DNA of 26,308 nucleotides from a virus (Duplodnaviria > Heunggongvirae > Uroviricota > Caudoviricetes): the IMG/VR virus record IMGVR_UViG_2713896785_000023; one strand, given 5' to 3'. How positions within the stretch are numbered: the stretch's first letter is position 1; every line of letters starts with the position of its first letter. The position numbers and the translations under genes are program-made. Of this stretch, positions 1,843 to 2,938 are shown in pieces. Under the pieces are notes generated by a model that saw only the letters and a list, made by a program, of their open reading frames with translations, made no database searches and had not been told where the DNA came from.

Positions 1843-1892
1843 NNNNNNNNNNNNNNNNNNNNNNNNNNNNNNNNNNNNNNNNNNNNNNNNNN
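1843..1892. other. Assembly gap (50 N)
   Basis: Run of exactly 50 N; flanked on both sides by near-identical copies of the esterase 5' end. Confidence 0.99.
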
Positions 1893-1978
1893 CAGCCCTC
1901 TTTCAGTTTGTGTGTCAGCTTTTCCGCAAGGTCTGACGGCGACGCCGCCCTGACCACGTCATAGTGTTTAAATGCCAT
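1893..1978 (-). pseudogene. Second nanS-p-like N-terminal fragment (MAFKHYDVVRAASPSDLAEKLTHKLKEG...), truncated by the gap
   Basis: ATG at 1976-1978 (minus) preceded by a GGAGG RBS; translation is a diverged copy of the DUF1737 N-terminus of the gene at 1-1836; ends at the N run. Confidence 0.6.
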
Positions 1979-2157
1979 TATTCCTCCCCTTTCCGGGATT
2001 TTCCTCAACAGTTGCGGGCCACGGTCCGGCCACAAGGAGAATCAAAAGAGGAGAACCGCAGCCCGCAAAACGAAAAAGGCCGCGCAGTTGCGCAGCCTTA
2101 TAAACCCTGGTTAAAATCCACACGATAAAAATGACAATGCAAGTATCTCATGCTGTT

Positions 2158-2214
2158 GCCCGAACCCACTCGGGCTTTTTTTTGCATGTAAAAAGGCTCC
2201 TGCGATGAGAAGCC
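2158..2214. terminator. Bidirectional intrinsic terminator pair (copy 1)
   Basis: Plus: gcccgaacccactcgggc hairpin followed by T8. Minus: hairpin ggctcct...agaagcc (one mismatch in stem) followed by T5 in minus sense. Confidence 0.55.
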
Positions 2215-2501
2215 TGGATATATGCCTAATCTCTGTATACAGCATGATGCCGGGTGCCTCCCGGTGAATTCTGCAATGACCAGACAGAATCCGCAACTTG
2301 CCTATACAATACGCAACCAAACATCTGTCATTATGCCCCGCCGCTCAGGGGGATTCATCATGCAGGATTTTTTTAACAAACGCTCAGCATGTCAGGCAAC
2401 AGTCAACTGCCTGAATTGTGAGGCATTTAACATTTCACTGTCCGGTGTCTTTCCTGTAATAAAAAGCCCGCAAAAGAGAGTCAGGGCAGATAAGTGTGGT
2501 G

Positions 2502-2560
2502 TGGTGCGTTGTACTGGATTCGAACCAGTGACCGATTGCTTAGAAGGCAATTGCTCTGTC
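2502..2560 (-). tRNA. tRNA-Arg (anticodon UCU), phage-type; 5' ~18 nt lost in the N gap
   Basis: Reverse complement reads ...ATTGC-CTTCTAA-GCAAT (anticodon stem/loop, anticodon TCT), 5-nt variable loop, ACTGG-TTCGAAT-CCAGT T-arm, ACAACGC acceptor strand, discriminator A, encoded CCA. Not identical to host argU as I recall it; resembles the tRNA-Arg genes carried between Q and stx in Stx phages. Confidence 0.7.
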
Positions 2561-2610
2561 NNNNNNNNNNNNNNNNNNNNNNNNNNNNNNNNNNNNNNNN
2601 NNNNNNNNNN
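2561..2610. other. Assembly gap (50 N)
   Basis: Run of exactly 50 N; sequence after the gap (2611-2730) duplicates 2140-2257. Confidence 0.99.
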
Positions 2611-2620
2611 TCATGCTGTT

Positions 2621-2677
2621 GCCCGAACCCACTCGGGCTTTTTTTTGCATGTAAAAAGGCTCCTGCGATGAGGAGCC
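2621..2677. terminator. Bidirectional intrinsic terminator pair downstream of stx1B (copy 2)
   Basis: Plus: gcccgaacccactcgggc + T8 (2621-2646). Minus: GGCTCCTCATCGCAGGAGCC + TTTTT (2653-2677), correctly placed to end the stx1AB transcript. Confidence 0.65.
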
Positions 2678-2938
2678 TGGATATATGCCTAATCTCTGTA
2701 TACAGCATGATGCCGGGTGCCTCCCGGTGAGTTCGGCCTGGTGCCACCAAACCCGCGTATTCTCGCTTACGATCATCAAAGAGATCATACCGTTCACCAG
2801 TCGCCCCTCCGCACAGGGGGATTCACCATGCAGAAATTTTCTAACACATCTATTATCAGACCGGCAACAACTGACTGAATTGAGATGTATTTAACATTTA
2901 TGAATCTCCGCCTGCTATTTTCACTGAGCTATTCTGAG

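Follow-up and report, generated by a model that had tools for sequence, protein, structure and literature searches.

The arrangement found at positions 1843-2730 of the window, that is, of the whole 26,308-nt stretch of DNA analysed here, is almost certainly an artefact of scaffolding in a short-read de Bruijn assembly with k of about 63. In the real locus, stx1B would be followed by a convergent pair of small RNA (sRNA) genes, STnc100 and a member of the AgvB family, and then by the esterase gene, with 499 bp in total between the two coding genes. The true junction was located in a closed genome, the segment wrongly inserted into it was found at a home locus elsewhere in the same chromosome, and the ends of the contigs lie at k-mer branch points. 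The underlying elements, namely the Stx1a prophage, the esterase paralogs, the prophage tRNA-Arg and the AgvB-family/STnc100 pair, are all already known, and their arrangement in the scaffold is not a real feature.

Only two runs of N occur in the window, at 1843-1892 (scaffold gap 1) and 2561-2610 (scaffold gap 2), 50 N apiece, and they are indeed the two gaps between stx1B and the esterase gene of which an earlier reading, made from the sequence alone, had spoken. To their left, the contig at 1-1842 holds, on the minus strand, the 5' 1,836 nt of the NanS-p-type esterase gene of the Stx1 prophage together with 6 nt upstream, and ends at 1842. Between the gaps lies a misplaced contig of 668 bp (1893-2560), hereafter the island, which belongs between tRNA-Arg and the esterase of a lambdoid prophage that lacks stx; it starts within a second esterase gene, a SASA-type paralog, of which the first 86 nt are present (1893-1978, minus strand) before truncation at the contig end. 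The contig to the right starts at 2611 and carries stx1B (Stx1a B subunit, 2939-3208) and stx1A (Stx1a A subunit, 3218-4165), both on the minus strand and placed from the annotation of the identical closed-genome stretch.

Sequence is repeated across this structure in two ways. A segment of 127 nt occurs in copies of 98% identity at 2148-2274 and 2611-2737, the second being cut by the gap; the sequence-only reading was right about the near-identical copies, but it had placed them at 2140-2257 and 2611-2730, and the first in fact begins 8 nt later. Beyond the repeat, weaker collinear similarity continues at 86-88% (2335-2378 with 2803-2846, and 2404-2435 with 2868-2899). The 5' end of the esterase gene is likewise duplicated on the minus strand (1765-1842 and 1907-1984, 86% identical), with start codons at the complement of 1834-1836 and of 1976-1978, which bears out the claim that the esterase N-terminus occurs twice in diverged form. 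Chance can be set aside for this duplicated structure: the repeats run for 127 nt at 98%, and the island is found at 100% in at least 60 complete genomes.

The junction as it exists in a finished chromosome could be read from NZ_CP027544.1, the closed genome of Escherichia coli 2013C-3264, an O103:H25 strain (PMC7285328). Window positions 2611-26308 match it at 100.0% over 23,698 nt, the sole difference being one homopolymer C. The window probably comes from 2013C-3264 or a clone-mate. The Stx1a prophage of this strain lies next to ypjA, at approximately 1.652-1.675 Mb. In it stx1B and the esterase gene are spaced by 499 bp, without a tRNA and without the island, and the window flanks 1842 and 2611 abut a 165-bp segment (locus L002, 5843-6007) that is absent from the window. 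The segment recurs, at an unchanged spacing of 499 bp, in L006, L007 and L009, three further closed Stx1 prophages, and also in L022, an independent, gap-free 374-kb draft contig whose sequence agrees with the right contig at 100% over 10 kb. Among 5,426 complete E. coli genomes, a single one, CP027544, covers window positions 1-6000 to at least 80%, and does so in 5,397 bp; the 603 bp by which it falls short equal 768 minus 165, and CP027544 accordingly lacks the island at this place. The best-matching phage records, all of them Stx1 phages, span window positions 1-4657 in about 4,045 bp, which corresponds to the short spacing.

At least 60 complete genomes, among them that of O111:H- strain 11128, contain a stx-negative lambdoid prophage whose tRNA-Arg-to-esterase interval matches the island at 100%. 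In CP027544 it occupies 3,357,728-3,358,394, with 667 of 668 positions identical and a G5/G4 homopolymer as the sole difference, 1.70 Mb from the Stx1 prophage. This copy was located by a 176-nt sub-query, as the search with the whole island ranked CP027544, with its one homopolymer difference, below hundreds of perfect ties. The home prophage reads Q, methylase fragment, tRNA-Ile, tRNA-Arg, esterase, holin, lysozyme, without stx, and its esterase is annotated as a SASA family carbohydrate esterase. The earlier suggestion that the island may come from another prophage, one without stx, thus receives direct confirmation from the 3.36-Mb prophage of CP027544. The occurrence of the island at 100% in many other STEC genomes might also be read as contamination with DNA of another E. 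coli strain. This is extremely improbable, given that the genome of the matching strain holds the island itself, at 667/668 with a homopolymer difference only, and that the ends of the island contig are set by paralogs of CP027544 itself.

Further paralogous late regions are present in CP027544 at 1.30 Mb (L026) and 0.747 Mb (L028). In both of these prophages, TerB-family and DUF3927 genes occupy the moron site, between tRNA-Arg and the esterase, at which Stx phages have stx; the TerB gene at 0.747 Mb contains an internal stop.

The ends of the contigs fall at positions dictated by these paralogs. In all four cases exactly 62 nt separate the end from the closest base by which a paralog in CP027544 can be told apart. 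The left contig ends at 1842, 62 nt after position 1780, which distinguishes it from the 0.747-Mb paralog; the island starts at 1893, 62 nt before position 1955, which sets it apart from both the 0.747-Mb and the 1.30-Mb paralogs, and ends at 2560, 62 nt after position 2498, which separates it from the tRNA-Arg flank of the 0.747-Mb paralog; and the right contig starts at 2611, 62 nt before position 2673, where it is distinguished from the island itself. Such offsets of k-1 are the signature of a de Bruijn assembler with k=63 breaking at repeats. The 1.30-Mb paralog was also considered as the cause of the break at 1842 and rejected, as it diverges at 1830, whereas the 0.747-Mb paralog fits.

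These offsets bear directly on the reading in which the scaffolded order is real in the isolate, the Stx1 prophage having recombined with a sibling and gained a tRNA-Arg, a second sRNA pair and an esterase 5' fragment, so that a tandem hybrid junction formed downstream of stx1B. Lambdoid prophages do recombine at exactly such shared modules, mosaic junctions are seen among the paralogs, and the left contig carries eight alleles of paralog type, so that some exchange or strain difference is possible. The reading is nevertheless very unlikely to be correct. Four contig ends at exactly k-1 = 62 nt from paralog-distinguishing bases are not expected of a biological insertion, both junctions are N runs of the same fixed length, and the island is intact elsewhere in CP027544. 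The scaffolded order is found in none of the 5,426 complete E. coli genomes and in none of the best-matching phage records, and the simple order of the identical prophage in both a complete genome and the gap-free L022 points against it.

The observations are therefore best accommodated by the assembly artefact, for which the following course of events may be proposed. The true path from 1842 to 2611 would be a chain of short repeats common to sibling prophages: a 144-nt unitig identical to the 0.747-Mb prophage; a unique unitig of about 180 nt, which is absent from the scaffold and, lying below the usual 200-nt contig cut-off, was probably discarded; and an 89-nt exact repeat shared with the 3.36-Mb stx-negative prophage, which the assembler retained only within the island contig. 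Read pairs of the Stx1 locus anchored in this 89-nt repeat would then tie the island contig to both Stx1 contigs, and the scaffolder would chain the left contig, the island and the right contig, converting the negative distances implied by these links into gaps of a minimum size of 50 N. One paired-end scaffolder has a default minimum gap of 50 nt. The linking by read pairs, the disappearance of the unique unitig and the choice of software are parts of this scheme that we infer. Against the scheme it should be noted that the 89-nt repeat would be expected to break the island contig if the graph were one of unitigs alone, and the unbroken state of this contig requires an extra repeat-resolution step by the assembler.

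Within an artefactual origin, the island could alternatively have been placed by reference-guided contig ordering, through homology to the stx1B-esterase interval of a reference and not through read-pair links. The identity of 86.6% over 358 nt between the island and the true Stx1 stx1B-esterase interval would be enough for a homology-based orderer, and gaps fixed at 50 N are compatible with a tool that makes no estimate of gap size. A fixed minimum gap, however, is compatible also with paired-end scaffolders that clamp negative distance estimates, and a reference containing the true home of the island would normally draw it there, at 100% versus 87%. Placement by a reference is thus the less probable of the two routes, though one that deserves some weight. 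Whichever route was taken, the simple order in CP027544 and L022, the separate home of the island and the contig ends at k=63 branch points agree with the original proposal that a scaffolder had produced the structure from several lambdoid prophages sharing the Q-tRNA-(stx)-esterase region.

A further point against the artefact reading is the left contig, which differs from CP027544 at 8 of 1,842 positions. On the minus strand of window positions 1-1836, Pfam finds DUF1737 (E-value 1.4e-11), SASA (1.4e-11) and DUF6645 (6.3e-74), a domain set by which the gene is predicted to encode a NanS-p-type prophage esterase. The contig is 99.57% identical to the esterase adjoining stx1 in CP027544, and no complete genome matches it at 100%. 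The differing positions are 67, 968, 1450, 1453, 1456, 1459, 1486 and 1504; at all eight the window has the allele of the 1.30-Mb esterase paralog of CP027544, seven of the changes being synonymous third-position changes and one being G290D. At the seven of these positions that it covers, L022 has the CP027544 allele throughout. The patch at 1450-1504 has the look of a popped bubble or a path switch, for the Stx1 esterase and the 1.30-Mb paralog are identical over at least 98 nt of flanking sequence. Position 968, on the other hand, lies 19 nt from the Stx1-specific base 949, so that the contig is not a simple k=63 chimera of the two genes; at this position another paralog or a real strain difference may be involved. 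The paralog alleles as a whole could reflect either mixing of paralogs during assembly or gene conversion in the isolate. An origin of the whole left contig from another prophage was considered and rejected: its best match among complete genomes is the stx1-adjacent esterase of CP027544 at 99.6%, with which the esterases of two other genomes tie in score, and its identity to the 1.30-Mb paralog is only 96.5%.

At its other end, the island breaks off inside a tRNA gene. The 3' 59 of the 77 nt of a tRNA-Arg(UCU) lie at 2502-2560 on the minus strand, the 5' 18 nt being absent at the contig end, while the anticodon is retained (AGA on the plus strand at 2542-2544). The fragment is 100% identical to positions 6610-6668 of the related locus L001, part of a 77-nt gene that ARAGORN calls tRNA-Arg(tct), which agrees with the claim of a tRNA-Arg(UCU) running into the second gap. 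Over the entire window ARAGORN calls no tRNA, missing 2502-2560 because the gene is truncated, and the Rfam tRNA model gives the fragment, as a partial match, 25.7 bits against a gathering score of 29. By the same program, the Q-to-stx1A region of the window (4166-6877) is without tRNA genes, a place where sibling stx-negative prophages have tRNA-Ile and tRNA-Arg. With no tRNA called in the window and none between Q and stx1A of the Stx1 prophage, the misplaced fragment is the sole tRNA sequence that the window contains.

The repeated segment, which the sequence-only reading had described as containing a bidirectional terminator, does contain terminators, and the description can be refined with Rfam to a pair of convergent sRNA genes. 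In the island, a short gene matching AgvB (RF02702) runs at 2123-2182 on the plus strand and has its own terminator according to the terminator scan (stem at 2158-2175, followed by T8); it converges with an STnc100 (RF02076) gene at 2184-2392 on the minus strand (175.2 bits against a gathering score of 47; terminator at 2215-2194), and the scan places both terminator hairpins back to back. In the right contig, STnc100 of the Stx1 prophage lies directly downstream of stx1B at 2647-2860 on the minus strand (190.7 bits) and is identical in L002, whereas only the 3' end of the AgvB-family gene is left, at 2611-2645 on the plus strand, with a partial Rfam match at 2612-2645. In CP027544 that gene is complete at L002 5983-6042 (plus strand), against STnc100 at 6044-6257 (minus strand), and its 5' part is missing from the scaffold because it lies within the missing 165 bp. 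Both copies of STnc100 (190.7 and 175.2 bits) cover all model positions, 1-206 of 206. In both the island (2123-2182/2184-2392) and L002 (5983-6042/6044-6257), the pair is convergent; it sits between stx1B and the esterase.

The identity of the short sRNA is less straightforward. The island copy barely reaches the AgvB gathering score (56.6 against 56 bits) and is below threshold for AsxR (RF02703; 46.8 against 63 bits). In the cmscan alignment its 5' third, AAAAAUGACAAUGCAAG versus AACAACACAACAAUAUC in the AgvB consensus, is gapped and of low posterior probability, and within that alignment neither the GcvB-target mimic of AgvB nor the FnrS-complementary sequence of AsxR was found in the 5' variable region. 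The short sRNAs beside stx1 and in the island are identical to each other, with a 5' variable region unlike that of AgvB or AsxR. To judge from these model scores, the gene is probably a family-level relative, neither AgvB nor AsxR proper, and the strain would hold at least two copies of this variant. A canonical AgvB (96.5 bits) is present in the 0.747-Mb prophage of CP027544, at L028 5234-5295. Convergent sRNAs between a moron coding sequence, such as stx, and a conserved downstream ORF were described in eight Sakai prophages by Tree et al. 2014, with a conserved 3' and a variable 5' region (PMC4104026), and a 2026 preprint links STnc100 to esterase-associated prophage regions. The Rfam matches, taken together with the published arrangement (PMC4104026), identify the repeat as a known multi-copy module of lambdoid prophages.

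Several other features of the window were recorded in passing. Within the Q gene (6878-7225, minus strand), the homopolymer at 7189-7194 is C6, giving an intact 115-aa antiterminator Q with a full-length Pfam Phage_antitermQ domain. CP027544 has C5 at this place and its Q is annotated as frameshifted; L022 agrees with the C6 of the window. Along with the G4/G5 difference at the island home, this suggests that homopolymers were miscalled in the closed assembly and that Q is not a genuine pseudogene there. A three-gene cassette (4740-6847, plus strand) encoding proteins of 350, 130 and 221 aa lies between Q and stx1A on the strand opposite to theirs; no Pfam family and no significant PADLOC family was found in it. 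An exact match to the 350-aa protein is present in 2,255 blocks of the collection, and in the places read it stands beside Q together with these two partners, whether the prophage is of the Stx1, the Stx2 or the stx-negative kind. The cassette is a candidate moron or defence cassette. Finally, two tandem pairs of C4 antisense RNA and isrK score above the Rfam gathering thresholds at 11536-11721 and 12189-12377 on the minus strand, in a stretch annotated as two adjacent ash-family genes; they are predicted to represent a duplication, within the early region of the Stx1 prophage, of a c4/ant-like immunity module of the P1/P7 type.

The significance of the misassembly is practical and not biological: the scaffold is wrong at the stx1B-esterase junction. 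Taken at face value, it shows a tRNA-Arg beside stx1B, a pseudo-duplicated esterase 5' end, a doubled sRNA module and, in the Stx1 prophage itself, an AgvB-family sRNA gene that has lost its 5' half, and it stretches the stx1B-esterase spacer from 499 to 1,102 bp. Such a record is misleading for comparisons of the late regions of Stx phages, for typing of prophages by tRNA-stx linkage and for attempts to count the sRNA copies of prophages in draft STEC genomes. A repeat-induced misjoin may be told apart from a real rearrangement, even without reads, by a simple test of the contig ends, namely whether they fall at a distance of exactly k-1 nt from bases that distinguish paralogs.

Compared with known prophages, the window reproduces the order of the Stx1a prophage of CP027544, which runs esterase, STnc100/AgvB-family pair, stx1BA, three-gene cassette, Q, replication genes, immunity genes, integrase and ypjA; it differs in that the 165 bp of the closed genome are replaced by N50, the 668-bp island and N50, and in that the closed genome has Q annotated as frameshifted (C5 versus C6 in the window). 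The stx-negative prophages of O111:H- 11128 (at 1.45 Mb; island 100% identical) and of CP027544 (at 3.36 Mb; 667/668) share the order Q, tRNA-Ile, tRNA-Arg, esterase, and in both there are 523 nt from tRNA-Arg to the esterase start, leaving no room for stx; only 668 bp of such a prophage are present in the window, and wrongly placed. With the module of Tree et al. (EcOnc01-03, i.e., the AgvB/AsxR group with a convergent partner; PMC4104026), the sRNA pair shares a short sRNA on the strand opposite to the late transcript that converges on a longer one (STnc100 by Rfam), the multi-copy occurrence between a moron (stx) and the conserved esterase ORF, and a conserved 3' region of about 42 nt beside a variable 5' region, whereas the Stx1-prophage and island copies differ in their 5' region from both AgvB and AsxR and barely attain the AgvB gathering score (56.6 versus 56 bits). 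As an assembly product, the scaffold corresponds in every respect compared to the repeat-induced misjoin, or misplaced small contig, of short-read scaffolds, with N runs of fixed length, ends at k-1 from repeat boundaries, loss of unitigs of less than 200 nt and a small repeat-bearing contig set between the neighbours of its paralog.
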